Positions 29,068 to 47,068 of a DNA stretch of 64,000 nt are shown here, piece by piece (the first letter of the stretch is position 1; every line of letters begins with the position of its first letter). This DNA comes from Verrucomicrobiia bacterium (GTDB lineage Bacteria > Omnitrophota > Omnitrophia > Omnitrophales > Aquincolibacteriaceae). The stretch lies in NCBI GenBank assembly GCA_035495615.1, contig DATJFP010000026.1, positions 15,635 to 79,634 on the forward strand, given 5' to 3'. The notes under the pieces were generated by a model. It saw only the letters and a program-made list of their open reading frames with translations. It had not been told where the DNA came from and did no database searches. A program made the translations under genes and the position numbers.

Positions 29068-31600
29068 GGCCGCGGGAATTGAGCGACGCGATGTCGGCCA
29101 GCGCGCGCGGCACGGAAAAGCCGCCGGGAAGGGCAATGTATTTCGGACGCCACTGCGGCCCGAACTTTTCTTTGTAATCGCGAAGGCCTTCGAAGTTGTA
29201 GAAATATTCGCCGCGCGAGAAAATGAAAGCGCCCAGCTTGTTCCACAACGGTGCGAACTCGCGGTTCTCGAGCCCCGCAAGAGGCGCCATGCCCACGTTG
29301 AACCACTGATAGCCCTGCTCTTTTCCCCAGAGGAAAAGATTCAGGAAAAGATAATCCATGGATCCGGCCGGCGCGAGATCCGGGTCATAGCGCATCAAGT
29401 CCACGGACAGTTCGCTTTTCTCCGCGCCCAGCATGACATTGGCAAACGCCACGGGCTTGCCTCCATACCGCATGACTGCCATGGGAAAATGACGCAGATA
29501 CGACACGTCGAAAAATCCGAGCGAGAAGCCTTTTTCCTTGGTGTTTTTCTTGGCGAGCCATGCGTCGGAAATCGTCTTCAGCTCCGCCGCGCGGCCGGGC
29601 ACCGCCTCTTTATCCACCCACTCGAAGGAAGCGCCCTCTTTTTCCATGCGCCGGAGGGTGTAGCGCATTTCTTTGCGCCCGCCGCCTTCCAGTGAAAACG
29701 CGGGAAGGAAAACGCGGCCTTCCTCACCCATCTTGATCAGGGCAAATCCCGCGTCGAGATAAAGCGGCAAATACTGCGGATTCACTTCGTAGAAAACGGG
29801 CATGCCGTCGTGACGGTCGACAAGCATGCGGAAAGACGTGATCAGGTCCAGCCAGGCATTGCTGTCACCAATCGGGTCGCCGAGCGACACCCAGCTCTTG
29901 CCCTGGACGCCGTACATGATGAACGCCAGGCCGTCCCGGCTGAAAAGAAAATTCTTATCGCCGCTCAGGGCGAGATAAGAGGTGGTATTGGACGAGCGCA
30001 CAATGATGTCGAGGGCGCGGGAAAGTTCTTCCGGTGAAGGCGGATGCACTTTGATCGTGGTCGTTCGCATGAGATTGGCGGCGGAAAGGATGCCGGCAAA
30101 GGCCATGACGCCTACCACGGCGCGCATGGAGCGCGCCGCATCCCCGCGCAGGCTGAAGTGCCACCAGAGGTCGCCTGAATAATTGACGTGCTTGAACGCA
30201 AAAAGCCCCAGCCATACGGACACACTGATGACGGTCAGGACCGAAAGAAGCCATGCCGGCGAAAGCGCTTCGCCGAAGAGCGACGCCTTCCGGTAAAAAA
30301 AGGGCCGGCTCGGAACGATCAGCAGGAACATGGCAAACAGGATCACGGCTTCTTCATAGTCAAAACCTTTCATCAGGGAAAACACCATGCCGAAGCCCAG
30401 AAGGATGAGCGCGAAATAATAAGCCGCATCGAGGCGCCGCTGGATGCCCCGCGCGAGGAATAAAAGCAGGACGCCCGCGAGGCTTCCGAGAAAATGCGAA
30501 AGTTCGATGGCCGGAAGAGGCAGGAAGCGCTCCAGCATGGCAAGACGGGAACCGACCGCGGGCGTGGATCCGGAAAGCAGCAGCACCGTGCCTGCAATGA
30601 ACGTGGTCACAGAAAGCAGCGGCGGCACGAACGGCGTCAGAATCTGATTGAAGGCCGCGCCGGCCTTGGCGTATTTCCGCAGATTCTTGAATTCGAGAAC
30701 GGCCAGAAACAGCAGCGACACGAAAAGCGGGAGAAGATAATAGATAAGCCGGTAATAAAGAAGGGAAACGAAAAGCTGGTCCGAAGGGACTCGGTCGGAG
30801 AGCGCGGCCAGAAGCGTCGCTTCGAAAACACCGAGGCCGCCGGGAACCTGGCTGACCATGCCCAGCAAATGCCCGGTGATGAAAAGCCCCACGAAGAAAA
30901 GATAGGACAGCCCATGTCCCTGCGGCAGCAAGACGTAAAGGACGGCCGCGGCCAGCAGCCAATCGGCAAGCGAAAAAAAAGCCTGGCCGAGAGCAAGCCG
31001 CCCTTCCGGCAAACGCAGCTCCCAGTCTTTGATCTTAAAGGAGCGGCGAACGAAGCCGCAGGCCAAAAGATAACTCAGGACTGCAGCGAGAAAGGCAATG
31101 CCCAGCATGCGCACCATTTCGGGACTCAGAAATTGCAGGCCCGGCAAAAGACGGCCGGGAGCGGTCACGAAAGAAAAACCGAGGAGCGCGATAAGGCCCA
31201 GAAAAAAACTCACGCTGTAAAACAGGATAACTTGGGCGGTTTCCAGCGCCGAGAGTCCCCACGTGGAGTACATGCGGTAGCGTACGGCAGCTCCGGAAAG
31301 CGCGACCGCGCCGAAATTATTTCCCAGCGCGCTGGCGATAAACGAGGCCGGAAAAATCTTGGCGTACTTCATGGGCTTGCGGATGTAGCGCAGACCCAGC
31401 CATTCGTAGGACGTCAGCGCCGCGTAATTGAAGGCCGTAAACAGCGCCGCCGCCAGCAGCGGACGCTTGGGGAAATCGGCAAAGTTATGCGTGACGTCGT
31501 TAAAGTGGTGGCCGCCAAGCTCGCGGTAAAGCACCCACAATCCCCCGATAAAAAAAACGAATCCGAGGGAATGAAAAACGCGAAGAAGGAATTTTTTCAT
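29045..31600 (-). CDS. mprF: bifunctional lysylphosphatidylglycerol flippase/synthetase (phosphatidylglycerol aminoacyltransferase)
   Basis: 851 aa. ~14 TM N-terminal flippase domain plus C-terminal synthase domain (DUF2156-like, FANVMLG...YDPDLAPAGSMDYLFLNLFLWGKEQGY). Confidence 0.85.
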   Translation of the reverse strand: MKKFLLRVFHSLGFVFFIGGLWVLYRELGGHHFNDVTHNFADFPKRPLLAAALFTAFNYAALTSYEWLGLRYIRKPMKYAKIFPASFIASALGNNFGAVALSGAAVRYRMYSTWGLSALETAQVILFYSVSFFLGLIALLGFSFVTAPGRLLPGLQFLSPEMVRMLGIAFLAAVLSYLLACGFVRRSFKIKDWELRLPEGRLALGQAFFSLADWLLAAAVLYVLLPQGHGLSYLFFVGLFITGHLLGMVSQVPGGLGVFEATLLAALSDRVPSDQLFVSLLYYRLIYYLLPLFVSLLFLAVLEFKNLRKYAKAGAAFNQILTPFVPPLLSVTTFIAGTVLLLSGSTPAVGSRLAMLERFLPLPAIELSHFLGSLAGVLLLFLARGIQRRLDAAYYFALILLGFGMVFSLMKGFDYEEAVILFAMFLLIVPSRPFFYRKASLFGEALSPAWLLSVLTVISVSVWLGLFAFKHVNYSGDLWWHFSLRGDAARSMRAVVGVMAFAGILSAANLMRTTTIKVHPPSPEELSRALDIIVRSSNTTSYLALSGDKNFLFSRDGLAFIMYGVQGKSWVSLGDPIGDSNAWLDLITSFRMLVDRHDGMPVFYEVNPQYLPLYLDAGFALIKMGEEGRVFLPAFSLEGGGRKEMRYTLRRMEKEGASFEWVDKEAVPGRAAELKTISDAWLAKKNTKEKGFSLGFFDVSYLRHFPMAVMRYGGKPVAFANVMLGAEKSELSVDLMRYDPDLAPAGSMDYLFLNLFLWGKEQGYQWFNVGMAPLAGLENREFAPLWNKLGAFIFSRGEYFYNFEGLRDYKEKFGPQWRPKYIALPGGFSVPRALADIASLNSRGLKGIFSK

Positions 31601-31604
31601 AGGA

Positions 31605-32225
31605 TCAGGTTTTTCCCAGCGGCCAGCACATGCCGCTCAGTACGCCGAAAAAGAAAGCAGTCAGATGCGCGAGATCCGCGTGTTTTTTGACCAGCGGATT
31701 TTCGCCTGCGGCCGCGGGCCTGCAAAAAACCACGATGAGGCCCGCGAATACAGCCGCAATCGCCGGCCACCGCCAGGCCCCCAGTCCGAGCATCAGAGCG
31801 CCCAGACAGCCGAAATACCCTGCGGATGGGCCGACGTCGCGGACAAGTTTGAGCTCCTCGCCAAAGAAATCTGTAAGCGGGCGCAGCGGAAGAAGCATCA
31901 GGACAGACAAGAACAGAAGAGTCAGAGTATGGGCACCCCAGAAGGTCAGTACGGCGCGTGCCGTACCGGCCACGCGTTCCAGGCCGCCGACAGCCAGCAG
32001 CGTCACGGCCATGGCCAGGACGAGGGATTTCGGGCCATCCGTAAAAAAAGTCGACACGAACATCCGGCCCAGGCGCCCTGCCCCCAAATCGGCCGGGGCA
32101 TAGCCGATTTTTTCGAGCCAGGGATCGGACAAAACGCCGGTATGCGTGCCGGCCCAGAAACCGGCGGCGGCAACGACTGCGAGTAAGATGAATGTAAACG
32201 GGAGCATAATGGAAAACCTTTTCAC
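31605..32225 (-). CDS. rhomboid-family-like small polytopic membrane protein (possible rhombosortase-type)
   Basis: 206 aa, ~6 TM. GPSAGYFGCLGA resembles the rhomboid GxSG serine motif and AHLTAFFFGVLSG the His-helix. Assignment tentative. Confidence 0.4.
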   Translation of the reverse strand: MKRFSIMLPFTFILLAVVAAAGFWAGTHTGVLSDPWLEKIGYAPADLGAGRLGRMFVSTFFTDGPKSLVLAMAVTLLAVGGLERVAGTARAVLTFWGAHTLTLLFLSVLMLLPLRPLTDFFGEELKLVRDVGPSAGYFGCLGALMLGLGAWRWPAIAAVFAGLIVVFCRPAAAGENPLVKKHADLAHLTAFFFGVLSGMCWPLGKT

Positions 32226-34525: not shown

Positions 34526-34867
34526 TCAGTCGACCGCCACTTCCCCGTTTTCACCCGTGCGGATGCGGATCGCGTCATCAATCGTCGTGATGAAGATCTT
34601 GCCGTCTCCGACCGAGTTGGTGCTTGCGGTGCGCACGATGGCCTCAACGATTTTTTTCACCTGCGTATCGCGCGCAACGATTTCGATCTTGGTTTTCGGC
34701 AGGAGGTCGACTTTGAATTCTCTGCCGCGGAATTGCTCCGTGATCCCGGCCTGCTTGCCGTGCCCGACGATTTCCCACACTTGCATGCCTGGGCAGCTGA
34801 TGCCGTCAAGCGCCTGCTTCACATCGCCGAGTCTTTCCCTGCGAATGATAGCTTGAATCATCTTCAT
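34526..34867 (-). CDS. glnK: nitrogen regulatory protein P-II
   Basis: Aligns along full length with E. coli GlnB. T-loop reads GHGKQAGITEQFRGREF, so Phe replaces Tyr51. Start taken at MKMIQAII. Confidence 0.85.
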   Translation of the reverse strand: MKMIQAIIRRERLGDVKQALDGISCPGMQVWEIVGHGKQAGITEQFRGREFKVDLLPKTKIEIVARDTQVKKIVEAIVRTASTNSVGDGKIFITTIDDAIRIRTGENGEVAVD

Positions 34868-34871
34868 TTGA

Positions 34872-36491
34872 TTATCTCCCTTTCCCGACACTAGCCGGCT
34901 CGTTATAAACGTAATTGCTCTTCGGGCCGGGGCCGTTCTTGCGTGTAGACAGCGGTGTCTCTGAAAACTTGTCCAGCTTCACGCCCACATAACCCGGAAC
35001 GCCCATTTCGGGAATGTCCAAACCTTCGACTTCGTCATCCGGCCGGACACGCAGCCCGATCGTGACATCGATCGCCTTAAGCACAATGTAGCCGATGACG
35101 CCCACGTAAACCACGTTTGCAAGAACGCCGATGCAGGAAGCCACAAACTGACTGGGATCGCCATAAAAAAGTCCGCGAACCGTTCCCGCAACGCCGTTCC
35201 AGCCGTCGCCGTACGTTCCGTCGGCGAAAAGGCCCGTGGCCAGAATGCCCCATGCGCCGTTCACGCCATGAACCGCTACGGCGCCGACGGGATCATCGAT
35301 CTTAAGCACGCCTTCAAAGAAATACACGGCTTCGACGACGAGCAGGCCCGAAACCGCGCCGATGATGCAGGCGTTCACCGAATTCACGAAAGCGCAGGGC
35401 GCCGTGATGGCGACAAGGCCCGCGAGCATACCGTTGCACATCATGCTGGGATCCGGCTTCTTGGTGCGGACTAGCCACATCCAAAGCGTTGCGACGAGCG
35501 CGCCGGTCATGGAGGCCAGCATCGTGTTCGTAGCCACGACGGAAATACGCAGGTCCGTGCCCGCCAGCGTGGAGCCGGGATTAAATCCGAACCATCCGAA
35601 GGCGAGAATGAACGTGCCGACAATGGCCATCGGGATATTATGCCCGGGAATCGCGTTGGGAGTTCCGTCCGCATTGAACTTCCCGATCCTGGGGCCAATG
35701 AGTTTCGCGCCCACGAAAGCCAGGACGCCGCCCGTCAAATGCACCACCGAAGAGCCTGCGAAGTCCACATGCCCATGGCCCAGACCGAAATTCTGGCCGA
35801 GCATGGCCAGCCAGCCGCCGCCCCAGGTCCAGTTGCCATAAATCGGATAGATGATGCTGCCCACGAAAAGGCCGTACACGACAAACGCCGAAAATTTCCA
35901 ACGCTCGGCCATGGATCCCGTAGGAATCGTTGCGGTCGTGTCCATGAACACCATCTGGAAAAGGAACATCGCGAAGATCGCGGCGTCATAGGATTGTCCC
36001 GTCAGGAAAAAGCCTTTCATGCCGAAAAGGCCGAAACTTTTTCCGAAAAGGTGCAGCGTAAACTCATGGTTCAGGACATCCACGCCTCCCAGCGTGCCAA
36101 ACGCTCCGATGCCTCCGAACATTAACGCAAACCCGCACACGTAGAAACCCAGCATGCCCAAGGGATAGATCATGAAGTTCATGGACATCGTATGCGCCGC
36201 GTTTTTTGCGCGGCAAAGCCCGGTTTCCACCATGGCAAAACCCGCTTGCATGAACATCACGAGAAATCCGGTGATTAGCGTCCATACAAAGTTAATCGAG
36301 ACCTTGTTATGGCCCACTGCGGTCGCGAGTTCTTGGAGAGTCGGCGCGCCCGCCGTGGCAGCCGTAACGTCAGCAGCAGTTCCGGTCAGTGCGCCGCTCG
36401 GATCGGCATCCTTGGCGAAAGCCAGGACCGGCACTATCAGCCCGAAAGCGAATAGCCCTAGGAAAAAAAGACTCACTAATTTCTTTTGCAT
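34872..36491 (-). CDS. amtB: ammonium transporter
   Basis: 539 aa Amt/MEP family with cleavable signal peptide and 11 TM core. Immediately upstream of glnK on the same strand. Confidence 0.85.
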   Translation of the reverse strand: MQKKLVSLFFLGLFAFGLIVPVLAFAKDADPSGALTGTAADVTAATAGAPTLQELATAVGHNKVSINFVWTLITGFLVMFMQAGFAMVETGLCRAKNAAHTMSMNFMIYPLGMLGFYVCGFALMFGGIGAFGTLGGVDVLNHEFTLHLFGKSFGLFGMKGFFLTGQSYDAAIFAMFLFQMVFMDTTATIPTGSMAERWKFSAFVVYGLFVGSIIYPIYGNWTWGGGWLAMLGQNFGLGHGHVDFAGSSVVHLTGGVLAFVGAKLIGPRIGKFNADGTPNAIPGHNIPMAIVGTFILAFGWFGFNPGSTLAGTDLRISVVATNTMLASMTGALVATLWMWLVRTKKPDPSMMCNGMLAGLVAITAPCAFVNSVNACIIGAVSGLLVVEAVYFFEGVLKIDDPVGAVAVHGVNGAWGILATGLFADGTYGDGWNGVAGTVRGLFYGDPSQFVASCIGVLANVVYVGVIGYIVLKAIDVTIGLRVRPDDEVEGLDIPEMGVPGYVGVKLDKFSETPLSTRKNGPGPKSNYVYNEPASVGKGR

Positions 36492-36683: not shown

Positions 36684-37412
36684 TTAGGCGGGGACGGAAA
36701 TGGACGGAGGATCAATACGAAGACGATATCCCACGGCGGGCTCCGTGAGAATATAAATAGGACGCGCCGGGTCGGGCTCGAGTTTCTTGCGCAGGTTATA
36801 AATAACGACACGCAAAAGATGGTCCATCCGATGGACACTCTGATCATTATTCCAAACTTGTTTGTAGAGCTGCTCCGTTCTGACGATTTTACCCGCGCTC
36901 AAAACCAGGGCCTTCAGCACATCGTATTCCGTCGGCGTGAGATGCTGCGTGCGGTCCCCGACTTTGACGATACGCTGCTCGCCATCGAAAACAAGTTCGC
37001 CGGTCTTGAAAATCGGAGTTCCGCCTTTCGGCAGCCAGCGGCGCATGAGCGCTCGAACGCGGGCTAGAAACTCCGAAGGGCTGAAGGGCTTGGTGACATA
37101 GTCGTCGGCGCCTGCGTCAAGCGCCGCCACTTTATCCGCTTCGTCTCCGCGGACCGAGAGAATCATGATGGGTGTAGCCGCGCGCTGGCGTATCTCTCTG
37201 GCCACCTCGACTCCGCTGATATCGGGCAGTTTCAAATCCAGAATAATCGCATCAGGATGCGCTTTTACCGCGGCTTTCAAAGCCGCGCGGCCGTTAGCCG
37301 CTTCAAAGGTGCGGTACCCCTGGGATTGGAGCATTCTTTTGAGAACGCGCCTCAGCGGACGTTCGTCATCCACGATCAAAATACGCACCCCGTCTTTTTT
37401 AGGCCTAAGCAT
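36684..37412 (-). CDS. OmpR-family response regulator, KdpE-like (pair 1)
   Basis: Receiver domain (ILIVDDE...DLKLPD...DYVTKPF) plus winged-helix output (LTPTEYDVL, GYRL). Confidence 0.8.
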   Translation of the reverse strand: MLRPKKDGVRILIVDDERPLRRVLKRMLQSQGYRTFEAANGRAALKAAVKAHPDAIILDLKLPDISGVEVAREIRQRAATPIMILSVRGDEADKVAALDAGADDYVTKPFSPSEFLARVRALMRRWLPKGGTPIFKTGELVFDGEQRIVKVGDRTQHLTPTEYDVLKALVLSAGKIVRTEQLYKQVWNNDQSVHRMDHLLRVVIYNLRKKLEPDPARPIYILTEPAVGYRLRIDPPSISVPA

Positions 37413-38541
37413 GGGGCTTCTCGATGCAAAAAGGCAATTCCACAATCATTTTCGTCCCCTTTTCCGGCAGATTTTCGGCCCAGATTTTTCCTTGGTGCGC
37501 CTCAACAATTCCTTGGCAAATCGAGAGGCCGAGACCTGTACCCGGAATTTTCTGCGTTCGTTCACCGCGGTAGAACTTATCAAAGATACGATGCAATTCC
37601 CGTTCCGGAATGCCCGGGCCCTCGTCAGAAATTTCAATACGGACGCTTTGCATCGAGGTTTTGATCTCGAGCAAAACCAAAGAACCCCTGGGCGAATACT
37701 TCAGGGCATTGTCGATCACATTGACTAAGACTTTCAGCATCAGGTCGTAGTCGACGCAGGCTTCCGGGAGCTCATCCGGAAGAAGGACGCGCACACGATA
37801 TCCTTCCTCCCCCCGGGATAACTGCTGCAATGCCACTCCGATGAGATCGCTTAAGTCGCATGGTTTCCGGGTCAGCTCTAAAATGCCTCCCTCGACCTTG
37901 GTCATGTCCAATAAATTTTCAACGAGCTGACTGAGTCTCCCCGCCTCCGCGTTGGCTGTCGTAATGAGCTGCCGGCGGGAGGATTCATCCAGGTCCATGT
38001 TGTGGTGCATCAGATTCCCCAGGGCCGCAGTGATCGAGGACAACGGCGTTTTTAGATCATGAGAGATCGAGTTCAACAAAGTTGAATACAGTTTCTCCTT
38101 CTCCCGCAAAAGCTCCATCTGCTGAGTTTTCATGAGGCTGCGTCGGAGGCGCGTCGTCAAAGTGCTGATCGTGATTCCTACAATCAAGAATCCGGCCAGG
38201 GTGACGAAATCGTGCTGACTGAATGTGGCGAAGCTGAATTGCGGCGGGATGAAAAGGTAATCAAAAGCCAGCACGCTGGCGATCGAAGAGGCGATTGCGG
38301 GGCCACGGCCCCATTTGAGCGCAATAATTACGACCCCTAAGAGATAAAAAATAATGAGGTCGGTTGTGATCAGAAAGGCTTTGGCATAGGCAATCCAACC
38401 CGCAAGAAAAGCCGCTGCCACCAACATCAGGCTCAGGATATATGGCATGACGCGATCGGTTTTTTTTCCACCCCACTTCATGGTCATGAGAGCCCCTACG
38501 GATCGATAATTGTATCGAACGTCAGGGAAAGAAAATATCAA
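37405..38541 (-). CDS. sensor histidine kinase, KdpD C-terminal type (4-TM + HisKA + HATPase only)
   Basis: TM block LAFDYLFIPPQFSFATFSQHDFVTLAGFLIVG matches the KdpD membrane domain. LLNSISHDLKTPL H-box. No N-terminal KdpD/Usp domain and no GAF linker. Confidence 0.8.
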   Translation of the reverse strand: MIFSFPDVRYNYRSVGALMTMKWGGKKTDRVMPYILSLMLVAAAFLAGWIAYAKAFLITTDLIIFYLLGVVIIALKWGRGPAIASSIASVLAFDYLFIPPQFSFATFSQHDFVTLAGFLIVGITISTLTTRLRRSLMKTQQMELLREKEKLYSTLLNSISHDLKTPLSSITAALGNLMHHNMDLDESSRRQLITTANAEAGRLSQLVENLLDMTKVEGGILELTRKPCDLSDLIGVALQQLSRGEEGYRVRVLLPDELPEACVDYDLMLKVLVNVIDNALKYSPRGSLVLLEIKTSMQSVRIEISDEGPGIPERELHRIFDKFYRGERTQKIPGTGLGLSICQGIVEAHQGKIWAENLPEKGTKMIVELPFCIEKPHA

Positions 38542-38654
38542 AATTTGATCAAATCCGCAAAACCCGGCGCAAAATATTAAAAATGGGGATGTTGCTGAGA
38601 AGTCCTTTTGCTAAAATGGCCCATCACCGGACCGTGAACTGTCGGTAAACGCAC

Positions 38655-39728
38655 ATGCAGAGACAAGACTCGCCGATCAAATATCATTTTATCTGGCACG
38701 GTTATGCCCAGAGCCTTCTCATGGTGGTTCTGGTCACGCTTGGCGGGGAACTACTCAAGCGCACGATCGAGCCCATCAACCTTATCATGTTCTATCTTTT
38801 GGCCGTGATCGTCGCGGGCATCCGCTGGGGCCACGGCCCCGCTGTCCTGACTTCCGTTCTGAGCGTGCTTGCCTTTGATTTTTTTCTCATCCCTCCCTAT
38901 CTGACTTTCGGCGTCGAAGATTTCCAGTACGTCTTTACCTTCGCGGGTTTTCTCATTGTAGGTCTGATCACAAGCGAACTGATGACAAAAACAAAGGAGC
39001 AGGCGCGCAAAGCGCGGCAATTGGAACTGCTTCGAGCGACAAAAAAACTGCAGACAGCGCTCCTCAATTCAGTCTCGCACGACTTGCGCACGCCGCTGGC
39101 TTCGATCATCGGATCCATCAGCATGCTCCTGCAAGACGAGCCTTCCCTCGCCGAAGAAACCATAAAGGGGCTGCTCCGGGACGCCTATGGGGAATCGCTG
39201 CGCTTGAATCGCTTGGTCGGGAACCTCCTCGACATGACGCGGCTTGAAGCCGGCGCTCTGAATCTTTCTTTTAAATCCTGCGATTTAAGAGACGTGCTCG
39301 GCGTGGCTTTGCAGGAGCTCGCCGACAAATTGGAGCAGCGCCGAATTAAAACCCAGATCCCTCACGACCTCCCGGAAATCAGCGCGGACTTTTCTTTGAT
39401 CATGAAGGTGCTCGTGAATTTAATCGATAATGCGGCGAAATATTCGTCTGAGGACACACCGATCCGCATTGCCGCCAAAACGCAGGGCGACCGGATTAAA
39501 ATTGAAATCATGGACGAGGGAATTGGAATTGCCCCCAAAGACTTGAAACCTATCTTCGACAAATTTTACCGCGCTTCCCATCCGTCGACGGTCGAGGGTC
39601 TCGGGCTTGGGCTCTCGATAGCGAAAGGAATCGTGGAGGCGCATCATGGCGAAATCTGGGCGGAAAGCGGCGCGGGAAAAGGGACGACATTCGTCGTGCT
39701 TTTGCCTTACTCCAAGGAGACCGCATGA
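38655..39728 (+). CDS. sensor histidine kinase, KdpD C-terminal type (pair 2, paralog of 37405-38541)
   Basis: LAFDFFLIPPYLTFGVEDFQYVFTFAGFLIVG TM block. LLNSVSHDLRTPL H-box. About 50% identical to the divergent paralog. Confidence 0.8.
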   Translation: MQRQDSPIKYHFIWHGYAQSLLMVVLVTLGGELLKRTIEPINLIMFYLLAVIVAGIRWGHGPAVLTSVLSVLAFDFFLIPPYLTFGVEDFQYVFTFAGFLIVGLITSELMTKTKEQARKARQLELLRATKKLQTALLNSVSHDLRTPLASIIGSISMLLQDEPSLAEETIKGLLRDAYGESLRLNRLVGNLLDMTRLEAGALNLSFKSCDLRDVLGVALQELADKLEQRRIKTQIPHDLPEISADFSLIMKVLVNLIDNAAKYSSEDTPIRIAAKTQGDRIKIEIMDEGIGIAPKDLKPIFDKFYRASHPSTVEGLGLGLSIAKGIVEAHHGEIWAESGAGKGTTFVVLLPYSKETA

Positions 39729-40426
39729 AGGAGCAGCACGCCTTGCGCGCGTTGATTGTCGATGACGAGAAGGCCTTGCGCCGTTTTCTCAAGACCGCAC
39801 TGTCGTCCCACGGCTATCAAGTGTTCGAAGCCGGCAACGGCCTAGAGGCCCTCGAAGAATCCGTATCCTGCCATCCCGACGTCATCATCATCGACCTGGG
39901 CCTGCCCGACAAGGACGGCATCGAGGTCACGCGCGAGATCCGCCGGCGCACGAAGACGCCCATCATCATTTTGTCGGTGCGCGACCGCGAAGAGGACAAA
40001 ATCCAGGCGCTCGACGCGGGCGCGGACGACTACCTCACCAAGCCTTTCAGCGCAGGCGAATTGATGGCGCGTCTGCGGGCCGTCATCCGCCGCCTAGTTC
40101 CGCAAAACGAAACCACATTTTTTAAAGCCGGCAAATTAGCGATCGATATCGGCAAGCACACGGTGGAATTAAACGGCCGCGCCCTCCAGCTCTCGCCGAC
40201 CGAATTCGACATCGTTAAAGTGCTGGTCATGAACGCCGGAAAAGTCGTGACTCAAAAGCAGATCTTGAAAGAAGTCTGGAACAAAACCGAAGAAATGGAA
40301 GGGGCTTCCCATCTTCTCCGCGTCACCATCAGCAATCTGCGCAACAAAATCGAGCCCAATCCCGACCGTCCCACCTATCTTCTCACCGAGCCGGGCGTGG
40401 GATACCGCCTTCATACCGAAGATTGA
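39725..40426 (+). CDS. OmpR-family response regulator, KdpE-like (pair 2)
   Basis: ALIVDDEKALRRFL...DLGLPDKDG...DYLTKPF receiver. LSPTEFDIVKVL...GVGYRL winged helix. ATGA overlap with upstream kinase. Confidence 0.85.
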   Translation: MKEQHALRALIVDDEKALRRFLKTALSSHGYQVFEAGNGLEALEESVSCHPDVIIIDLGLPDKDGIEVTREIRRRTKTPIIILSVRDREEDKIQALDAGADDYLTKPFSAGELMARLRAVIRRLVPQNETTFFKAGKLAIDIGKHTVELNGRALQLSPTEFDIVKVLVMNAGKVVTQKQILKEVWNKTEEMEGASHLLRVTISNLRNKIEPNPDRPTYLLTEPGVGYRLHTED

Positions 40427-40459
40427 TTTGAAAGATTTTCCGCTTACCCATTTCCTCTT

Positions 40460-40504
40460 TTGACTCTCTTTTGACTTGGCCTTCCTTTGCCTCACGGCTA
40501 TCTT
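40460..40504 (+). promoter_or_regulatory. activator-type promoter: 11-bp-phased direct repeat TTGACTC-N4-TTGACTT, then TATCTT -10 element 22 nt downstream, no canonical -35
   Basis: Same architecture with identical spacings recurs at 43682-43726, upstream of the second riboswitch. Confidence 0.35.
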
Positions 40505-40514
40505 TTGCATAGAT

Positions 40515-40695
40515 CGAACAAGCCGAATCCGGATGACGGATCGGGGGACCCAGAGAAGGCTCCGGAGCTCGATGCTTCGGGGCGATAAGCAGCTCGAAAC
40601 TTGGTGTTTTTAGCTATCGGGGCGAATCACTGCAAAGTGAAAGGTTTCCACTCGACCTTAGCCCGACAGCTAACCCCGTAGGCGAAACGGAGAGA
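40515..40695 (+). promoter_or_regulatory. c-di-AMP riboswitch (ydaO/kimA class) in leader of ptsN-like/kimA operon
   Basis: GAAUCCGGAUGACGGAUCGGGGGACCCAG ... GGGGCGAAUC ... GUUUCCACUC ... AGCCCGACAGCUAACCCCGUAGGCGAAACGGAGAG. Conserved blocks remembered from the ydaO motif (GAAUC, ACGG..GGGGGACCCA, GGGGxGAAUC, CCCGAAGG-GCAA-like 3' end). Confidence 0.75.
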
Positions 40696-40796
40696 ACTGT
40701 GCACCGCATTTTCGAACCGCGCTTTTCAATCCTTTCCGTTTCCCCTGGTTTCACCGCCGAAGCGTTCCGCGCAGACGGGCTTTCAAGGAGGACGCC

Positions 40797-41381
40797 ATGG
40801 TTTCACTCATCGTGTTAGGAGGAGCAAAAATGCTGTCGTTTCGAAAGCAAAGGCAGGAAACATCATTAAGGCGCGGGCAGGCCGCCGCGAATCAGAGCTT
40901 AGGCCAAGCGGCGTTAAAAATTTCCGACTACCTGACGTCCGAACAGATTTGTTTTTTCCCCGAGGGAACAAACGCGCTCAGGGTATTCTCGGATTTGATA
41001 GGCACTCTCTCGATACCAAACCGGGAGTTCGCTTTGGAAGCCGTTCTTCGCAGGGAACAAGTCGGCGGGACGATCGTGGCTCCGGGAATCGCGCTTCCCC
41101 ATGCTCGGATTGACGGCACGGACCGGTTGCATTCGGCTCTCGCTCTTTGCCCAAGCGGTATCAAGCTCAGCGAAGACGAACCGGCGATCCGCCTGCTCCT
41201 CCTTTTTGTCAGCCCTTTTACCGAACTGAAAAACCACTTACGCTTTCTGGCCGCGGCAGCAGCTTTATTTCAAGACGAAATGCTTTGCGGCGACATGATC
41301 GCGCTGAAGTCGAGCGATGCCATTTTGGAAAAACTAAAACACAAAGAAATGAAAACCCATGCCGAACATTCCACAAAATAA
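40797..41381 (+). CDS. PTS EIIA type-2 protein, EIIA(Ntr)/PtsN-like
   Basis: ALEAVLRREQVGGTIVAPGIALPHARIDG...LLLLFVSPFTELKNHLRFL aligns with E. coli PtsN around the phosphorylatable His (GIAIPHG). AGGAGG RBS 7 nt upstream. Confidence 0.75.
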   Translation: MVSLIVLGGAKMLSFRKQRQETSLRRGQAAANQSLGQAALKISDYLTSEQICFFPEGTNALRVFSDLIGTLSIPNREFALEAVLRREQVGGTIVAPGIALPHARIDGTDRLHSALALCPSGIKLSEDEPAIRLLLLFVSPFTELKNHLRFLAAAAALFQDEMLCGDMIALKSSDAILEKLKHKEMKTHAEHSTK

Positions 41382-43389
41382 GTCGGTCCCTCGAAACGTC
41401 GTCATTGTGACGACCGCCATGCTGAGCTTTATCAGTTTCTGGCGGGCCGCCGCGATCGTGCTTTGCGATATTGCCTCCACGGTTTATTACATCGGCGGCA
41501 TTGCCGAGCATGCCATCGGAAAAGCCGCTCCGTGGTTTATTTTGGGCGTGATGCTCTTTTCCTACACGGTACGCGCCATTTACATCGAGTCTTGCGGCAT
41601 GTTTGTCCGCGGCGGCGTATACCGCGTCGTCAAGGAGGCTATGGGAGGAACGCTCGCCAAACTTTCCGTCTCGGCCCTGATGTTTGACTATGTCTTGACC
41701 GGGCCCATCAGCGCGGTTTCGGCAGGCCAATACATGGTCGGCCTTTTGAACACGACGTTTCCACACTTCGGCTTACCGTGGCATTTTCGCGCTGATATTT
41801 TTTCCGTTTTGTTCGCCGTCGCCGTCACGCTCTATTTCTGGTGGGAAAACGTTAAAGGCATTCCCGAGTCGAGCGACAAAGCCCTCAAAATCATGATCGC
41901 CACGACGATCATGGGCATCACCATGATCATTTGGAGCGTGACGACGCTCCTCGTGCGAGGCATCCACTGGCCCCCTTTCACTCCCGTCTTTAACGAAGAC
42001 TCGCTGGGCTGGCTGTATTCTCTGAAAGACAAGATCAAACCTCTGGGCGTCCTCGGCCTCACCATCGCCTTCGGCCATTCGCTGCTCGCCATGTCCGGCG
42101 AAGAATCCCTTGCCCAGGTCTACCGGGAAATCAAAGCGCCCAAGCTCAAGAATCTCGAAAAAGCAGCCTTCATCGTCTTTCTCTACAGCATGCTGTTGAC
42201 CACGCTGGGAAGTTTTTTCGCGATCATGATCATTCCCGATTCCGTGCGCATGAGCCAATACTCCGACAATCTGATAAGCGGCCTTGCGATGTATTTCGTC
42301 GGCCCGCTCCAACTCAGACTCCTTTATCAAGCCTTCGTGGTCTTCGTCGGATTTTTAATTCTTGCCGGCGCGGTGAATACGTCCATTATCGGGTCGAACG
42401 GGGTCCTCAATCGGCTGGGAGAAGACGGCATCCTGCCCGAGTTCCTCAGAAAGCCTCATGCCCGTTTCGGCACGTCTTCGCGGCTCATCAATATGACAGT
42501 AGGACTTCAACTGCTGACGATCGTACTCTGCCGGGGGAATATTTACGTGCTCGGTGAGGCCTATGCCTTCGGCGTCATCTGGAGCTTCGTATTCAAGGCC
42601 CTGGCCGTCCTCATCCTCCGCTATAAAGACAAGATGCCGCGCGAATGGAAAGTGCCCTTGAATATCAAAATCAAAGGCCTGGAATTCCCGGTCGGAATCG
42701 CCGCTATTTTTCTGATCCTTCTCCTTACCGCCAGCGCGAACCTTGTGACGAAAAAGGTCGCCACAATTTCCGGCTCCCTTTTTGCCCTTGTCTTTTTTGC
42801 CGTATTTGTGGCTTCGGAAAAGATCAACAAGCGGAAGCATCATGCCCTTCATGGCCAGCATGACATTCACGCGGGCCACATCGACCGGGTCAATCTGAAT
42901 GAGATCGAAAATCTCAGCCCCGAAAGTTGCGGCTGCACGAAACCCCGAAGGGTCATTGTTGCCGTACGAGGCCCGCACAGCCTCAGCCATCTCGAAAAAA
43001 CGCTCCATCAGATCCATCCGGAAGACACCGATGTCGTGGTGCTGACTTCGAAAGTCGGCAAGGGCTACCAGTTGGAAGGCGATTTGAGCCGTGTCGCGCC
43101 GGAGGAAGAAAAGCTCTTTACCCGCGTGATTGAAGTGGCAGAGAAAGTCGGCCGAACCGTCATCCTGCTGTCGGTCCCGACGAACGATCCTTACTACGTG
43201 ATGGCGCGCATCGCGCACGAGTTAAAAGCGCAGGAACTCGTGGTCGGAAAATCTGAAAAATTTTCCCCCGAAGTTCAGATGGAGGAAATCGCGATTGCCT
43301 GGGGCGCCGTGACGCCGCCGCGCCAGCATGTGCCGCCTCTGATGATTCGGATTCTGTGGGATGGGAAAGAAATGACCGAAATGTTCTAA
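41359..43389 (+). CDS. kimA: KimA-family K+ importer (APC superfamily) with C-terminal cytoplasmic Usp-like domain
   Basis: 676 aa, 12-TM APC fold. SGEESLAQV region corresponds to KimA SGVEAISN. C-terminal RRVIVAVRGPHSLSHLEK...VVVLTS...VILLSVP resembles the B. subtilis KimA cytoplasmic domain. Preceded by ydaO-class riboswitch. Confidence 0.75.
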   Translation: MPNIPQNKSVPRNVVIVTTAMLSFISFWRAAAIVLCDIASTVYYIGGIAEHAIGKAAPWFILGVMLFSYTVRAIYIESCGMFVRGGVYRVVKEAMGGTLAKLSVSALMFDYVLTGPISAVSAGQYMVGLLNTTFPHFGLPWHFRADIFSVLFAVAVTLYFWWENVKGIPESSDKALKIMIATTIMGITMIIWSVTTLLVRGIHWPPFTPVFNEDSLGWLYSLKDKIKPLGVLGLTIAFGHSLLAMSGEESLAQVYREIKAPKLKNLEKAAFIVFLYSMLLTTLGSFFAIMIIPDSVRMSQYSDNLISGLAMYFVGPLQLRLLYQAFVVFVGFLILAGAVNTSIIGSNGVLNRLGEDGILPEFLRKPHARFGTSSRLINMTVGLQLLTIVLCRGNIYVLGEAYAFGVIWSFVFKALAVLILRYKDKMPREWKVPLNIKIKGLEFPVGIAAIFLILLLTASANLVTKKVATISGSLFALVFFAVFVASEKINKRKHHALHGQHDIHAGHIDRVNLNEIENLSPESCGCTKPRRVIVAVRGPHSLSHLEKTLHQIHPEDTDVVVLTSKVGKGYQLEGDLSRVAPEEEKLFTRVIEVAEKVGRTVILLSVPTNDPYYVMARIAHELKAQELVVGKSEKFSPEVQMEEIAIAWGAVTPPRQHVPPLMIRILWDGKEMTEMF

Positions 43390-43400
43390 GCGAGAAAAGG

Positions 43401-43685
43401 ATGGATTTCTTTTTAAAATTCACTCTCATCTCTTATGCCTCGATTTTCTTTTTCACACTGGGATTGCGCCTGGCTGTTTCCAGCGAATTGGACTTGCGGG
43501 TCATCCAACTTTTTCTTATTTTTGCCGCTGTCTCGCTTCCTTTGTCTCTGACCTTCAAATCCCAGCCTTTGTATAGCCGTTTTCTGATGTCCCTGACCTG
43601 CACCTCCCTCATTCTGACCGGTTTCCGTTTCGGCAGGAAAATAAAGCGTTTGGGTGAAGAAAATCCCCTCAAACGTCATTTTTGA
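43401..43685 (+). CDS. small 3-TM membrane protein ending ...GFRFGRKIKRLG (paralog of 45622-45891)
   Basis: 94 aa. RBS GAAAAGG. Shares FFLxFxLxSYAxIFFFxxGL...FKSxPL...GFRFGRKI with the ORF following the second kimA. Confidence 0.5.
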   Translation: MDFFLKFTLISYASIFFFTLGLRLAVSSELDLRVIQLFLIFAAVSLPLSLTFKSQPLYSRFLMSLTCTSLILTGFRFGRKIKRLGEENPLKRHF

Positions 43686-43736
43686 CTCGTTTTTGACTCG
43701 TCCAATGCCCTCTCCCCGAGTATTTTGTCACGATTA

Positions 43737-43880
43737 ACGACAAGCCGAATCCCGACAGGGATCGGGGGACCCGATAAAGCGGCTCTCAAAGTTTTGAGCC
43801 ATGGGCGAATCCGCCGGAGCGCGGAGAGGTTTCCACTCAACCTCAGCCCGTCAGCTAACCCCGAAGGCGCAACGGAGAGG
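43737..43880 (+). promoter_or_regulatory. c-di-AMP riboswitch (ydaO/kimA class), second copy, abutting the kimA2 start codon
   Basis: ACAAGCCGAAUCCCGACAGGGAUCGGGGGACCCGA ... GGGCGAAUCC ... GUUUCCACUC ... AGCCCGUCAGCUAACCCCGAAGGCGCAACGGAGAGG. Co-linear with the first copy. The conserved 3' AACGGAGAGG contains the RBS for ATG at 43885. Confidence 0.75.
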
Positions 43881-43884
43881 TGTT

Positions 43885-45612
43885 ATGTCTTTGATGCTCA
43901 AAAAAGTCGATCGCCCGCGCGAATTGAAGTGGTATCAGGCGGGCGCCATGCTGTACGGCGATTGGGGAACCAGCAAGGCCTATGTGCTTGGCATCGCCTT
44001 CGCTCTTGCCGGCCACGCTTCCTGGTTTTTCCTCGGCCTCATGTCCGCGCTTACGGCCCTCATCGGCGTCTGCTACATGGTGATTTGCCGCGTGTATCCG
44101 GACGGCGGCGGCGTTTATTCTTCCGTGAAGCATCGCCACCGCCTGCTCGCGGTGATCGGCGCGTTTCTTTTGATCGCGGATTACGTGATTACCGCGTCGC
44201 TCAGCACGCTCGACGCCTTCCATTATTTCAACGCGCCGCATCCGGAAATCTGGGCCGTGGCCACGATCCTCGTCATCGGCGCCATCAACTGGCTCGGGCC
44301 CAGCAAATCCAGCACGATCGCGTCTTACATCGCCGTCGTGGCCTCGGCGGGCGCCCTGATTCTTTTCGCGGCAACCGTTCCCTCGCTCTCCCATGTGCAT
44401 CTGACCTGGCCCGGCAGCGACTGGCCCAAAAATTGGACGGTTTTCGTCGGCATCGTGCTCGCGCTTTCCGGCGTGGAAGCCATTGCCAACATGACGGGCA
44501 TCATGGAAGAGCCCGTCGAAAAAACATCCAAGCGCGCGATCTGGCCCGTGCTCCTGGAAGTTTCCGTGCTGACCTTTCTGCTTGGCATTGCCATGAATGC
44601 CATCCCGAACCTCAAAGACCATACCGAAGACATGCTCCGCGTCCTGGCCACGCATTATATCGGGCCTTGGTACGGCGCCTTCATCTCGCTCGCGTTCGGC
44701 TTCCTGCTGCTTTCGGCGACCAACACCGCCATCGGCGACCTGGTCAGCATCCAGTTTTTGATGGCCAAAGACCGCGAGCTGCCCGAAGCTTTCTCAAAGC
44801 TAAACCGCTTTGGCATGCCGGGCCTTGCGCTGATCATCGCCACGGCGATCCCCGCGGGCGTTTTAATCTTCGAGCACGATCTGGTTAAACTCGCGGCACT
44901 CTATGCCATCGGCGTGATCGGTGCCATCACGATCAATCTCGGCGCCTGCGCGACCAACTTCAAGATCCCGCTGAGCCGGAAGGAACGCATCCTCCTCGGC
45001 ATCGGCGCGGTCATCCTTTTTTTTATTGAATTGACGATCGCCTTCGAAAAGCACCACGCCCTGATTTTCGCGCTCACGGTCCTCGCGGTCGGATTGTCGC
45101 TGCGCTATGCCGCCAAGACGTTCCTGCCGATTCCGGTGCCGGCGCTTGCGCCCACGGTCAATCTGCTCACCGTTTCCGAAGCCAGAGAAATAGCGCCGCT
45201 TTACAAAAGCTCGTCGCTTGTCGCGATCCGCAGCTTTAATCCCGCGGTGCTCGACGAAGCCGCGCTGCGCGTGAAGGCCCTCAAGGAAAACGCGGTTTAT
45301 TTGAGCTACATCGAGGAAACTCCCACCGTGGCGGAATTGCCGGATGAAATCGAACCGTCCTCTCACTCCCTCGAAGTCCTGGGAGAGGCTCAGAAGGCCA
45401 TGGAGGAACGCGGGGTCACCGGCATCCCGGTCTGGCAGATCGGCGATGATCCCGGCCGCATGATCGCCAAAGCCGCGGCCGAACTTGGAGTCAATACGGT
45501 CATGATCGGGACGACGAGGCGCAGCGCGCTGGTCAACCTTCTCCGCGGCGACGTGCTGCGAACGCTCGCCCGTCATTTACCCAGAGAATGCCGCCTGGTG
45601 ATCAGCGGCTAG
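43885..45612 (+). CDS. kimA: KimA-family K+ importer, second paralog
   Basis: CYMVICRVYPDGGGVYSSVKH matches KimA YRQIIYAYPQGGGAYIVSKE. LALSGVEAIANMTG matches SGVEAISN. C-terminal Usp-like domain. Start moved from ORF-track 43801 to 43885 to clear the riboswitch. Confidence 0.8.
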   Translation: MSLMLKKVDRPRELKWYQAGAMLYGDWGTSKAYVLGIAFALAGHASWFFLGLMSALTALIGVCYMVICRVYPDGGGVYSSVKHRHRLLAVIGAFLLIADYVITASLSTLDAFHYFNAPHPEIWAVATILVIGAINWLGPSKSSTIASYIAVVASAGALILFAATVPSLSHVHLTWPGSDWPKNWTVFVGIVLALSGVEAIANMTGIMEEPVEKTSKRAIWPVLLEVSVLTFLLGIAMNAIPNLKDHTEDMLRVLATHYIGPWYGAFISLAFGFLLLSATNTAIGDLVSIQFLMAKDRELPEAFSKLNRFGMPGLALIIATAIPAGVLIFEHDLVKLAALYAIGVIGAITINLGACATNFKIPLSRKERILLGIGAVILFFIELTIAFEKHHALIFALTVLAVGLSLRYAAKTFLPIPVPALAPTVNLLTVSEAREIAPLYKSSSLVAIRSFNPAVLDEAALRVKALKENAVYLSYIEETPTVAELPDEIEPSSHSLEVLGEAQKAMEERGVTGIPVWQIGDDPGRMIAKAAAELGVNTVMIGTTRRSALVNLLRGDVLRTLARHLPRECRLVISG

Positions 45613-45621
45613 AGGTTCGAA

Positions 45622-45891
45622 ATGCCGGTTTCGAATATCGCTTTCTTCCTGAGGTTTGGGCTCACCTCGTATGCCGCCATTTTCTTCTTTGCCGCGGGGC
45701 TCGGGTTTGCCTTGTCTTATGCCGGCAGCCTGAAACACACGGATTTCGGCCTGCTTTTTTTCTTCATGGCCGCGGCCCTGTGTTTCAGTTTCAAGTCCGA
45801 ACCCCTTCAAGGCCGCCTGATCATCGCCGCCATCTGGGCCTCGATCGTTTGGGCCGGCTTCCGCTTCGGCCGGAAGATCCGGATGCGCTGA
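45622..45891 (+). CDS. small 3-TM membrane protein ending ...GFRFGRKIRMR (paralog of 43401-43685)
   Basis: 89 aa. RBS AGAGG. Conserved blocks shared with 43401-43685. Confidence 0.5.
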   Translation: MPVSNIAFFLRFGLTSYAAIFFFAAGLGFALSYAGSLKHTDFGLLFFFMAAALCFSFKSEPLQGRLIIAAIWASIVWAGFRFGRKIRMR

Positions 45892-46045: not shown

Positions 46046-47068
46046 ATGTCGACAAACGATCAGCCCTCAACTGCGCCCGCGGGCAAAAAACCCAAGATCA
46101 ACGCCCGCTTTCTCAGCCTGGGCAATTTGCTTCTGCCCGTCCTTCTGGTCATCATCGCGCTTCACTGGGGAGACGGCCGGGTTTTTGCCGAGCTGCTGCT
46201 GAAGATCAAGCCCCAATGGCTTGTCCTGGCCGCCCTCTGCCAGATCGGGACTTACCTCTGCGTAACCATGATCTGGCGCACGGTGTTCCGCCGCTGCGGC
46301 ATCCCCATCCGCTCTTATCAATTGTTTGCGCTCAGCATTGCCAAGCTTTTCTTCGACCAGACCCTGCCTTCCTTCGGCGTGAGCGGCAGCGTCATGGCCA
46401 TGCGCGGGTTCATCCGCCGGCAAAGCTCCAAGGGCGCGGCCGCCGCGGCGGTCATCATCAATACCACGAGCCGCTACCTGCCCTACGTGCTGCTGTTCAC
46501 GGCGGCCCTGGCCATCCTCTGGAAACACCACATGCTCAGCAAGCCGCTGGAATACACGGCGGCTCTTTTCATCGCAGTCATCGTCATGCTCATGGCCGCG
46601 ATCCCCGCGCTCGTGCAGCTGGCCATCAATCATAAAACACCGTCCTGGGTGCACCGGTTTGGCTGGCTCGAGAAGGTCCTGAAAACCTTGCGCGAGATCC
46701 CGGTCGAGATCATTGGGGACTGGCGCCTGTGGCTTGTGGCGTGCCTTGCGAACGCCTGCATTTTTCTGCTGGATTCGACGACGCTTTGGAGTCTGTTGTC
46801 GTCCCTCGGCATCGGGACCCATCCCTGGTTCCACGCCTACGTCAGCGACATGGTGTCGTCCGTCGTGACCGACCTGGCCATGGTGCCGGGAAAAATCGGG
46901 GTTTTCGAAGGAAGCTCCGTCACCATGCTGCGGCTCTTCAAATATCCGCTCGAAGAAGCCGTGGCCGCGACGCTCCTTTTCCGCGGCTTCACCTACTGGC
47001 TGCCCATGATCCCGGGATTTATTATCACCCGCCGCGAGCTCGGACAGCACCCTCACGAATCCCGCTGA
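46046..47068 (+). CDS. flippase-like domain membrane protein (LPG_synthase_TM / UPF0104 family), second stand-alone copy
   Basis: 340 aa polytopic. Same family pattern as 9727-10731 and the MprF N-terminal domain. Confidence 0.65.
   Translation: MSTNDQPSTAPAGKKPKINARFLSLGNLLLPVLLVIIALHWGDGRVFAELLLKIKPQWLVLAALCQIGTYLCVTMIWRTVFRRCGIPIRSYQLFALSIAKLFFDQTLPSFGVSGSVMAMRGFIRRQSSKGAAAAAVIINTTSRYLPYVLLFTAALAILWKHHMLSKPLEYTAALFIAVIVMLMAAIPALVQLAINHKTPSWVHRFGWLEKVLKTLREIPVEIIGDWRLWLVACLANACIFLLDSTTLWSLLSSLGIGTHPWFHAYVSDMVSSVVTDLAMVPGKIGVFEGSSVTMLRLFKYPLEEAVAATLLFRGFTYWLPMIPGFIITRRELGQHPHESR

Follow-up and report, generated by a model that had tools for sequence, protein, structure and literature searches.

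We examined two divergently transcribed sensor kinase genes, HK1 and HK2, in a 64,000-nucleotide stretch of an Omnitrophota genome (positions 15,635 to 79,634 of contig DATJFP010000026.1, assembly GCA_035495615.1; hereafter, the window). Each kinase gene leads into a response regulator gene (RR1 and RR2), and the plus-strand side of the cluster continues with promoter boxes, two cyclic di-AMP (c-di-AMP) riboswitches and the genes of two KimA-like potassium importers (Table 1). An earlier note on this DNA, made from the sequence alone, had described the kinases as divergent, paralogous and minimal KdpD-type proteins that lack the N-terminal domain (N-domain), the Usp domain and the GAF domain of KdpD, and this description was borne out by Pfam, NCBIfam, alignment and AlphaFold2.

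Table 1 Features of the kinase–importer cluster, with positions counted along the window
Feature	Position	Strand	Description
RR1	36684–37412	minus	KdpE-like OmpR-family response regulator; Pfam Response_reg and Trans_reg_C; top NCBIfam family KdpE
HK1	37405–38487	minus	KdpD-type histidine kinase, 360 amino acids; DUF4118 block of four transmembrane helices, HisKA, HATPase_c
Degenerate KdpE-type box ATTTGAT-CAAA-TTTTGAT	38554→38537	minus	HK1 promoter; contains the palindrome; 3 mismatches to TTTTGAC-N4-TTTTGAC
HK2	38655–39728	plus	Minimal KdpD-type histidine kinase, 357 amino acids
RR2	39725–40426	plus	KdpE-like response regulator; start overlaps HK2 stop (ATGA)
Perfect KdpE-type box TTTTGAC-TCTC-TTTTGAC	40458–40475	plus	0 mismatches; −10-like TATCTT at 40499–40504
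c-di-AMP riboswitch (ydaO/yuaA type)	40511–40699	plus	Rfam RF00379, 75.1 bits, E 1.3e-15; leader of the EIIA/KimA-like operon
PtsN-like EIIA(Ntr) protein	40797–41381	plus	Pfam PTS_EIIA_2, E 5e-13; top NCBIfam family PtsN, under cut-off; GIALPH His motif kept
Permease A	41359–43389	plus	KimA-like APC/KUP-type importer, 676 amino acids; Pfam AA_permease_2; weak Usp-like C-terminal domain
Small membrane protein A	43401–43685	plus	94 amino acids, directly after permease A; no Pfam family
Second perfect KdpE-type box TTTTGAC-TCGT-TTTTGAC	43680–43697	plus	0 mismatches; −10-like TATTTT at 43721–43726
Second c-di-AMP riboswitch	43733–43884	plus	Rfam RF00379, 76.3 bits, E 6e-16; ends at the permease B start codon
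Permease B	43885–45612	plus	Second KimA-like importer, 575 amino acids from ATG 43885; C-terminal Usp domain
Small membrane protein B	45622–45891	plus	89 amino acids, after permease B; paralogue of small protein A, E 2e-21

DUF4118 (PF13493; E = 1e-24 in HK1 and 2e-30 in HK2), HisKA and HATPase_c account for all Pfam matches of the two kinases. In HK2 they occupy residues 17–122, 134–200 and 247–352 of 357, respectively, and because together they span nearly the whole protein, a hidden sensor domain has no room. Neither kinase gave a Pfam match to the KdpD N-domain (PF02702, an atypical serine kinase), to Usp or, between the membrane block and the H-box, to GAF, and the search for these domains that the earlier note had proposed thus uncovered no cryptic sensor. 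An AlphaFold2 model of HK2 (mean pLDDT 73) places transmembrane (TM) helices at residues 9–33, 40–58 and 60–78 and the fourth at the start of a helix covering residues 90–160, which runs unbroken from TM4 into the DHp helix bearing His142 and is followed by a standard ATP-binding domain. Together with the Pfam limits, the model upholds the proposal that the four-helix block passes directly into the H-box. Structural matches to the model are confined to the cytoplasmic kinase core, except for full-length BceS, and the closest solved structure for HK2 is KdpD (6lgq_C). No variation is seen in the H, N, G1, F and G2 boxes of the kinases, and orthologues of HK2, which are 60–73% identical to it, keep the same architecture.

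KdpD is the top NCBIfam family for both kinases (220 bits for HK1, 262 bits for HK2), at scores far under the KdpD equivalog cut-off of 1123 (NF007793), and the two regulators score 204 and 224 bits with KdpE, for which the cut-off is 325. HK1 and HK2 are 46% identical to each other, and RR1 and RR2 54%. The closest solved structures for RR2 are those of KdpE (6lgq_D, 1e-60; 4kny, 4e-60), the next-best family following at 1e-44, and both regulators conserve the positions that correspond to R193, R200 and T215, through which KdpE contacts DNA. The first 8 nt of RR1 lie within HK1, an overlap of equal length being found in gene calls on the Logan contig, and RR2 likewise begins within the end of HK2, which suggests translational coupling of each kinase to its regulator. 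Of the kinase sizes of ~360–378 amino acids given earlier, the lower end stands, at 357 and 360; the 378-residue open reading frame (ORF) that was listed for HK1 (37405–38541, with a TTG start at 38541) is too long, as the NCBI record of the identical 360-residue protein (P0241) starts at ATG 38487, and an AGGGG Shine–Dalgarno sequence lies 5 nt upstream of this codon.

This minimal architecture is not unusual, but is that of a large clade already annotated automatically in public databases. Among more than 7,800 scored relatives of HK2, the best 120 are mostly 320–380 amino acids long with DUF4118, HisKA and HATPase_c, derive from Verrucomicrobiae, Omnitrophota and other uncultured lineages, and are named “DUF4118 domain-containing protein” or “KdpD”; the relatives of HK1 resemble them, among the matches listed. 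A second class of relatives, of ~480–520 amino acids, carries an added GAF domain, and in 80 loci from GTDB species genomes the kinases fall into three length classes (~340–430, ~500–600 and 880–980 amino acids), the last of which is full-length KdpD. Two sister pairs, P0020 (short) with P0015 (GAF-bearing) and P0248 with P0272, have near-identical flanks around an in-frame gap of ~150 columns, and in the short sisters the post-TM4 helix is joined straight to the RQLELLR...SHDL segment. Short and GAF-bearing kinases are interleaved in a neighbour-joining tree built without support values, and this interleaving suggests that GAF was lost repeatedly within the clade. In the same tree HK1 and HK2 fall into different subclades, and would therefore be old paralogues instead of the products of a recent tandem duplication. 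Their kinase cores are 49–54% identical to those of full-length KdpDs adjoining kdpAB.

Which genes such kinases may control is indicated by two features that the earlier note had overlooked, namely the two perfect direct-repeat boxes and the two c-di-AMP riboswitches that follow them. In its layout of 6-bp direct repeats with a 5-bp spacer the box matches the E. coli KdpE site, a TTTATA-N5-TTTACA direct repeat (PMC3264566). The motif TTTTGAC-N4-TTTTGAC lies between the regulator and transporter genes in every module of this kind, and when 1.42 Mb of collected loci were scanned with up to one mismatch it was found in 11 places, all of them on the kinase strand and 10 of them directly 3′ of a regulator gene. 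A TAnnnT hexamer lies ~23 nt 3′ of the box at all 12 transporter sites (24 nt in L020). Taken over the loci, the box precedes KimA-like and TrkH importers across several little-studied lineages, in metagenome-assembled genomes labelled Verrucomicrobiae, Omnitrophota and Planctomycetales as well as in unassigned metagenome contigs. Binding of the regulators to the box would be predicted from these patterns. In L020, the TrkH gene and its box are clear and the kinase ORF begins inside a GAF-like segment; its class being uncertain, this locus was dropped from the short-form kinases.

Both riboswitches score well above the RF00379 gathering score of 38 and cover model positions 1–134. The distance from the start of each perfect box to that of its riboswitch is exactly 53 nt, which puts the riboswitch approximately where transcription would be expected to start. 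Because the start listed for permease B (43801) falls within the second riboswitch, its start is taken as ATG 43885, which gives 575 amino acids in place of 603. RF00379 elements also occur in L082 and L085 (Rfam) and, by eye, in L173; none is present in L084, where the spacer is also too short, and the L091 spacer is too short to hold one. Six module loci can thus be scored, with a short kinase and a riboswitch in the window, L082, L085 and L173, a short kinase without a riboswitch in L084, and a GAF-bearing kinase without a riboswitch in L091; with six loci, any tie between GAF loss and riboswitch gain is anecdotal. Seven loci from JGI metagenomes (L092, L095, L121, L129, L151, L152 and L154) encode distant KimA-like permeases behind a riboswitch-like leader (nhmmer) with no adjacent kinase–regulator pair, and a riboswitch-only arrangement therefore exists in the KimA-like family outside the kinase module.

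The permeases themselves had been taken for KimA relatives, and this is supported by a family profile, including both window copies, that matches KimA (6S3K) at E = 2.7e-17, with the next match at 0.02; searches with permease A or B as single sequences against solved structures returned neither KimA (no 6S3K match at E 0.01) nor any other transporter. The KimA residues assigned by experiment to K+ binding and H+ coupling, D36, Y43, D117, T121, S125, T230, E233 and Y377 (PMC6994465), align with the invariant D37, Y44, D110, T114, S118, S246, E249 and Y402, and permease B shares these with the family; within the TM domain, its identity to permease A is 25%. Judged from these residues, the permeases are very likely K+/H+ symporters. 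Usp-like C-termini had been proposed for both paralogues, and the proposal holds clearly for permease B (Pfam E = 2.6e-8, with a match to the Usp structure 4wny) and weakly for permease A, whose Pfam E-value is 0.031 and whose hhalign comparison with the Usp end of permease B gives a probability of 66% and E = 5.6e-5; when a profile was built from this C-terminal domain of permease A, no solved structure matched it at E-values up to 10.

Each permease gene is followed by one for a small membrane protein, the two being 43% identical, and homologues lie 3′ of the permease in L082 (7793–8068), L084 (13870–14109) and L085 (14117–14371), with an 86-amino acid gene at the same position in L091 (10348–10608). 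They form a family of 80–95-amino acid membrane proteins without a Pfam match, found always directly 3′ of a KimA-like permease, and may be accessory subunits. The gene for the PtsN-like enzyme IIA (EIIA) overlaps the start of permease A by 23 nt. PtsN-like homologues occur near KimA-like genes in L094, L095, L097, L106 and L108, another follows the riboswitch in L173 from position ~3241, and L082 has an HPr gene close to its module. In E. coli and Sinorhizobium, KdpD is a binding partner of PtsN (PMC9239096), and the recurrence of these genes suggests a possible input of the nitrogen phosphotransferase system (PTS) into potassium uptake, to which the PtsN-like protein could by analogy add a further signal.

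Comparison of gene neighbourhoods links short kinases to importers other than the Kdp pump. The order of kinase, regulator, permease of ~675 amino acids and small protein of ~85 amino acids recurs in L082/L083, L084 and L085/L086 between entirely different flanks, and L091 has the same order with a GAF-bearing kinase, and in L173 the kinase and regulator genes are followed, in the order found in the window, by the riboswitch and EIIA. Short kinase–regulator pairs are followed by KimA-like genes in the window, L082, L084, L085, L021 and L061, and by TrkH genes in L002, L089, L175 and L176. In the last two loci, a conserved gene of ~170 amino acids without a Pfam match lies 3′ of trkH, at a possible TrkA/KtrA position (L175, 8531–9046; L176, 8533–9036). 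Among the GTDB loci, most full-length kinases adjoin kdpA or kdpB, and mid-length kinases have kdpAB, KimA-like or TrkH genes alongside; within up to 10 kb on each side, kdpA or kdpB was found beside the kinase in none of the short-form loci.

Taken together, these observations make it probable, on the reading of the sequence, that the window encodes two complete and insulated pairs derived from KdpD/KdpE, in which the kinase has been cut to the membrane block and kinase core and control has been retargeted from the Kdp pump to secondary potassium importers. The DUF4118 four-helix bundle is the sole input module, and in the HK2 model it joins the phospho-accepting His by one continuous helix. 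By analogy with the membrane domain of E. coli KdpD, the bundle would report external K+; at low K+ the kinase would phosphorylate its KdpE-like regulator, which would then bind TTTTGAC-N4-TTTTGAC 23 nt 5′ of the −10 element and activate both the EIIA/KimA-like operon and the operon of the second KimA-like permease. High c-di-AMP, a signal of potassium sufficiency, would veto expression through the riboswitch, a logic borrowed from Bacillus, such that internal potassium status would be read by RNA instead of by the lost GAF and Usp domains. The degenerate box in the HK1 promoter would in addition place HK1–RR1 under auto- or cross-regulation. Of this scheme, the domains, the gene order, the box and its spacing, the riboswitches and the conserved KimA residues can be seen directly in the sequence, and the remaining steps are inferred: that K+ is the ligand, in which direction regulation runs, which regulator serves which promoter, and that HK1 regulates itself.

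Published domain assignments suggest why the missing parts might be dispensable. The KdpD N-domain is described as a serine kinase for KdpB, with external K+ sensing assigned to the TM domain and internal sensing to GAF (PMC11018627), and the Usp domain of Staphylococcus KdpD is described as binding c-di-AMP (PMC4686210). Because KimA-like and TrkH importers offer no KdpB substrate, the N-domain could be dispensed with, and because a riboswitch can read the internal signal, so could GAF and Usp in the window. Extended to the other loci, the pattern would correspond to a widespread and so far undescribed KdpD/KdpE branch with a bare four-helix sensor and kinase core, rewired to KimA-like or TrkH importers through the box and, in some members, with a riboswitch replacing the GAF/Usp input; we put this broader proposal forward tentatively, at somewhat less than even chances.

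Several points weigh against these proposals. All regulatory steps are inferred from sequence. Since the two perfect boxes have identical half-sites, RR1 and RR2 cannot be assigned to one operon or the other. Matches to the box with three mismatches number 10 in the window against 6.7 expected, so the HK1 match taken alone is not significant, and because such matches occur near chance frequency the HK1-promoter box is backed just by its position and −10 spacing. The kinase tree, as noted, carries no support values. The nearest relatives of HK1 show no consistent transporter partner, the pair in L087 having none close by and L172 covering too little DNA to judge, and in a permease-based scan most KimA-like relatives from soil metagenomes had no adjacent kinase–regulator pair, which indicates that the module is confined to certain lineages. 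Finally, kdpFABC or a stand-alone KdpD N-domain protein could be encoded outside the 64-kb window.

The strongest competitor, which we nevertheless consider unlikely, is that the kinases sense not K+ but a partner membrane protein, either the KimA-like importer or the small membrane protein, with the transporter acting as co-sensor in the manner of BceS-type kinases. An input made of membrane helices only would suit such a role, as would the clustering of kinase, regulator, permease and small-protein genes in otherwise unrelated neighbourhoods and the presence among the structural matches of full-length BceS from the BceAB-S complex, aligned over 349 columns; for E. coli KdpD, too, accessory proteins such as PtsN have been reported as sources of input (PMC9239096). 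However, the same kinase clade and box are also found with TrkH-type channels that lack the small protein, where the contact would have to re-evolve, and full-length KdpD has the same, highly conserved DUF4118 block, to which external K+ sensing has been assigned there.

A further alternative concerns the spacer between the kinases, which the earlier note had placed at 38542–38654, incorrectly since the true spacer is 38488–38654 (167 bp). There, the perfect palindrome ATCAAA-A-TTTGAT was proposed to be a shared operator, i.e., a symmetric dimer site co-regulating both divergent kinase operons. The palindrome, ATCAAAATTTGAT, exists and is perfect, but lies at 38537–38549, 40 bp from the suggested ~38577–38589. 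Its perfection and its position within the shared spacer would suit an operator, as would the resemblance of its half-site TTTGAT to the box half-site TTTGAC, and a shuffled 167-bp spacer holds a 6-1-6 palindrome only ~3% of the time. Yet perfect 6-1-6 palindromes are common in the window, numbering 34 against ~17 in composition-matched shuffles, and the palindrome alone is weak evidence. KdpE/OmpR-family regulators, moreover, bind head-to-tail direct repeats (PMC3264566), and on the minus strand the same bases belong to a repeat of 11-bp period followed 22 nt later by TACAAT (38514→38509) and then by the HK1 start, in line with the 22–23-nt −10 spacing of the 12 transporter sites. Because this geometry matches that of the perfect boxes, a direct repeat is the likelier reading of the palindrome region, which is better explained as part of an imperfect minus-strand box than as a symmetric operator.

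The other side of the spacer and its relatives also argue against a symmetric site. As read from their sequences, HK2 and its orthologues have extended −10 elements (TGnTAnnAT-like) directly upstream without a box, a pattern consistent with constitutive expression; the plus strand ahead of HK2 showed no convincing box, and a generic promoter and terminator scan yielded no more than chance. One collected locus (L001) is 100% identical to the window, and the nearest relative of HK1 occupies another gene context. The palindrome is absent from L173, the sole related locus with a comparable upstream spacer, and co-regulation through a symmetric operator is accordingly rated as improbable. In L173 a lone OmpR-family regulator gene (73–744, minus strand) is divergent from the HK2 orthologue (68% identical), in place of HK1–RR1, and the divergent partner of HK2 is therefore not conserved.

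Directly downstream of HK1–RR1 on the minus strand lie amtB (34872–36491) and glnK (34526–34891), the latter overlapping amtB by 20 nt, in the reverse of the usual glnK–amtB order. It is conceivable, and about as improbable as the shared operator, that HK1–RR1 has left potassium control and regulates these genes in response to nitrogen status or to NH4+, an ion of the size of K+. Such a role would draw on the position of amtB and glnK 192 bp after RR1, on the separation of the HK1 subclade from that of the KimA-linked HK2 and on the PtsN-like nitrogen-PTS protein in the cluster. Upstream of amtB, however, there is no correctly oriented box-like direct repeat, with a lone TTTGAC on the opposite strand, relatives of HK1 are not adjacent to amtB, and in the only other locus with a similar pair, L004 of Omnitrophota, a 67%-identical amtB–glnK pair lies 7.5 kb from a full-length kdpD. 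Further out, the potassium cluster is flanked by an 851-amino acid ORF resembling MprF-type lysyl-phosphatidylglycerol synthases, as judged from its translation only (29045–31600), and by a separate 340-amino acid ORF with Pfam LPG_synthase_TM (46046–47068). The 2-kb bin 30001–32000, over the minus-strand MprF-like ORF and its neighbour, has an unusually strong AT skew of 0.36.

That HK1 and HK2 are merely remnants of a disrupted full-length kdpD, as their 40–55% identity to the core of genuine full-length KdpD might suggest, is almost certainly wrong: the same architecture of 340–380 amino acids dominates the best-scoring homologues among the matches listed, the domains join cleanly and without a break in frame, none of the H, N, G1, F and G2 boxes is damaged, each kinase gene overlaps the start codon of its regulator, the 5′ side of each kinase is a promoter-bearing spacer and not coding remnants, and tblastn of the 64-kb window returned no match to KdpA, KdpB or TrkH, nor to the two N-domains and two GAF domains of KdpD used as queries. 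The possibility of pseudogene fragments, which had been raised in the earlier note, was rejected on these grounds as far as sequence analysis allows, the kinases being intact and no kdpD remnants having been found in the window.

The signal and the sensing site of KdpD have been debated for decades, partly because its five domains have overlapping inputs. If the proposed scheme is correct, these kinases of ~350 amino acids would be the smallest natural KdpD-type K+ sensors and a clean system in which to locate the sensing site within the membrane domain; as natural minimal kinases that still appear to govern potassium uptake, they would narrow the search for it. The KdpD/KdpE circuit would then not be tied to the Kdp pump, and many proteins automatically named “KdpD” may not control kdp. 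The promoter box and riboswitch would together form a compact two-signal control, predicted to read external K+ via the kinase and internal status via c-di-AMP. Full-text searches of the literature returned no account of KimA-like or TrkH genes under a KdpD/KdpE-type system, of the TTTTGAC-N4-TTTTGAC box or of a c-di-AMP riboswitch paired with a two-component promoter. In Sinorhizobium, the canonical KdpE does not bind the trkA or kup promoters (PMC9239096).

Among known systems, E. coli KdpD/KdpE and its kdpFABC target are the closest point of comparison. The DUF4118 block, the HisKA/HATPase core and the KdpE-type regulator each have their top database match there, the sites share the layout of 6-bp direct repeats with a 5-bp spacer, and the function, predicted for the window, is control of K+ uptake in both cases. 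The window kinases differ in lacking the N-domain serine kinase, Usp and GAF and in scoring far under the NCBIfam equivalog cut-offs, the half-site is TTTGAC instead of TTTATA/TTTACA, and the predicted targets are KimA-like or TrkH importers instead of KdpFABC. Split and shortened KdpD forms have been catalogued by Silberberg et al. 2024, including a TM/GAF/DHpCA kinase with a separate KdpD/Usp serine kinase (PMC11018627). As described there, these variants resemble the window pairs in having a kinase half without the N-terminal domain and in keeping a KdpE partner, and the relatives of ~500 amino acids (P0015, L019 and L034) fit the TM/GAF/DHpCA class; the window kinases differ from the catalogued variants in having lost GAF as well and in being linked, with no Kdp genes close by, to transporters of other families. 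That survey is restricted to species in which a Kdp pump is annotated, and no GAF-less TM-DHpCA form is listed in its domain-architecture section (PMC11018627).

On the RNA side, an RF00379 riboswitch 5′ of a K+ importer gene is also found at B. subtilis kimA (ydaO) and at the kdp operon of B. thuringiensis, the latter being described as riboswitch-controlled without kdpDE (PMC6488665). In these Bacillus cases the riboswitch is the regulatory element that has been described, whereas the window riboswitches sit 3′ of a promoter with a predicted two-component box, which would give two layers of control. The window permeases conserve the K+/H+ residues of B. subtilis KimA, but are only its distant relatives. 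Intramembrane-sensing kinases of the BceS/LiaS type share an input made of membrane helices only joined to DHp and, as here, a kinase gene beside a transporter; they have two such helices, however, where the HK2 model has four of DUF4118/KdpD type, BceS neighbours a BceAB-type ABC transporter instead of APC or TrkH transporters, and its sequence relationship to the window kinases is limited to the kinase core. Overall, databases already contain the domain architecture, and length variants of KdpD have been surveyed before; what is new is the proposed wiring to importers.

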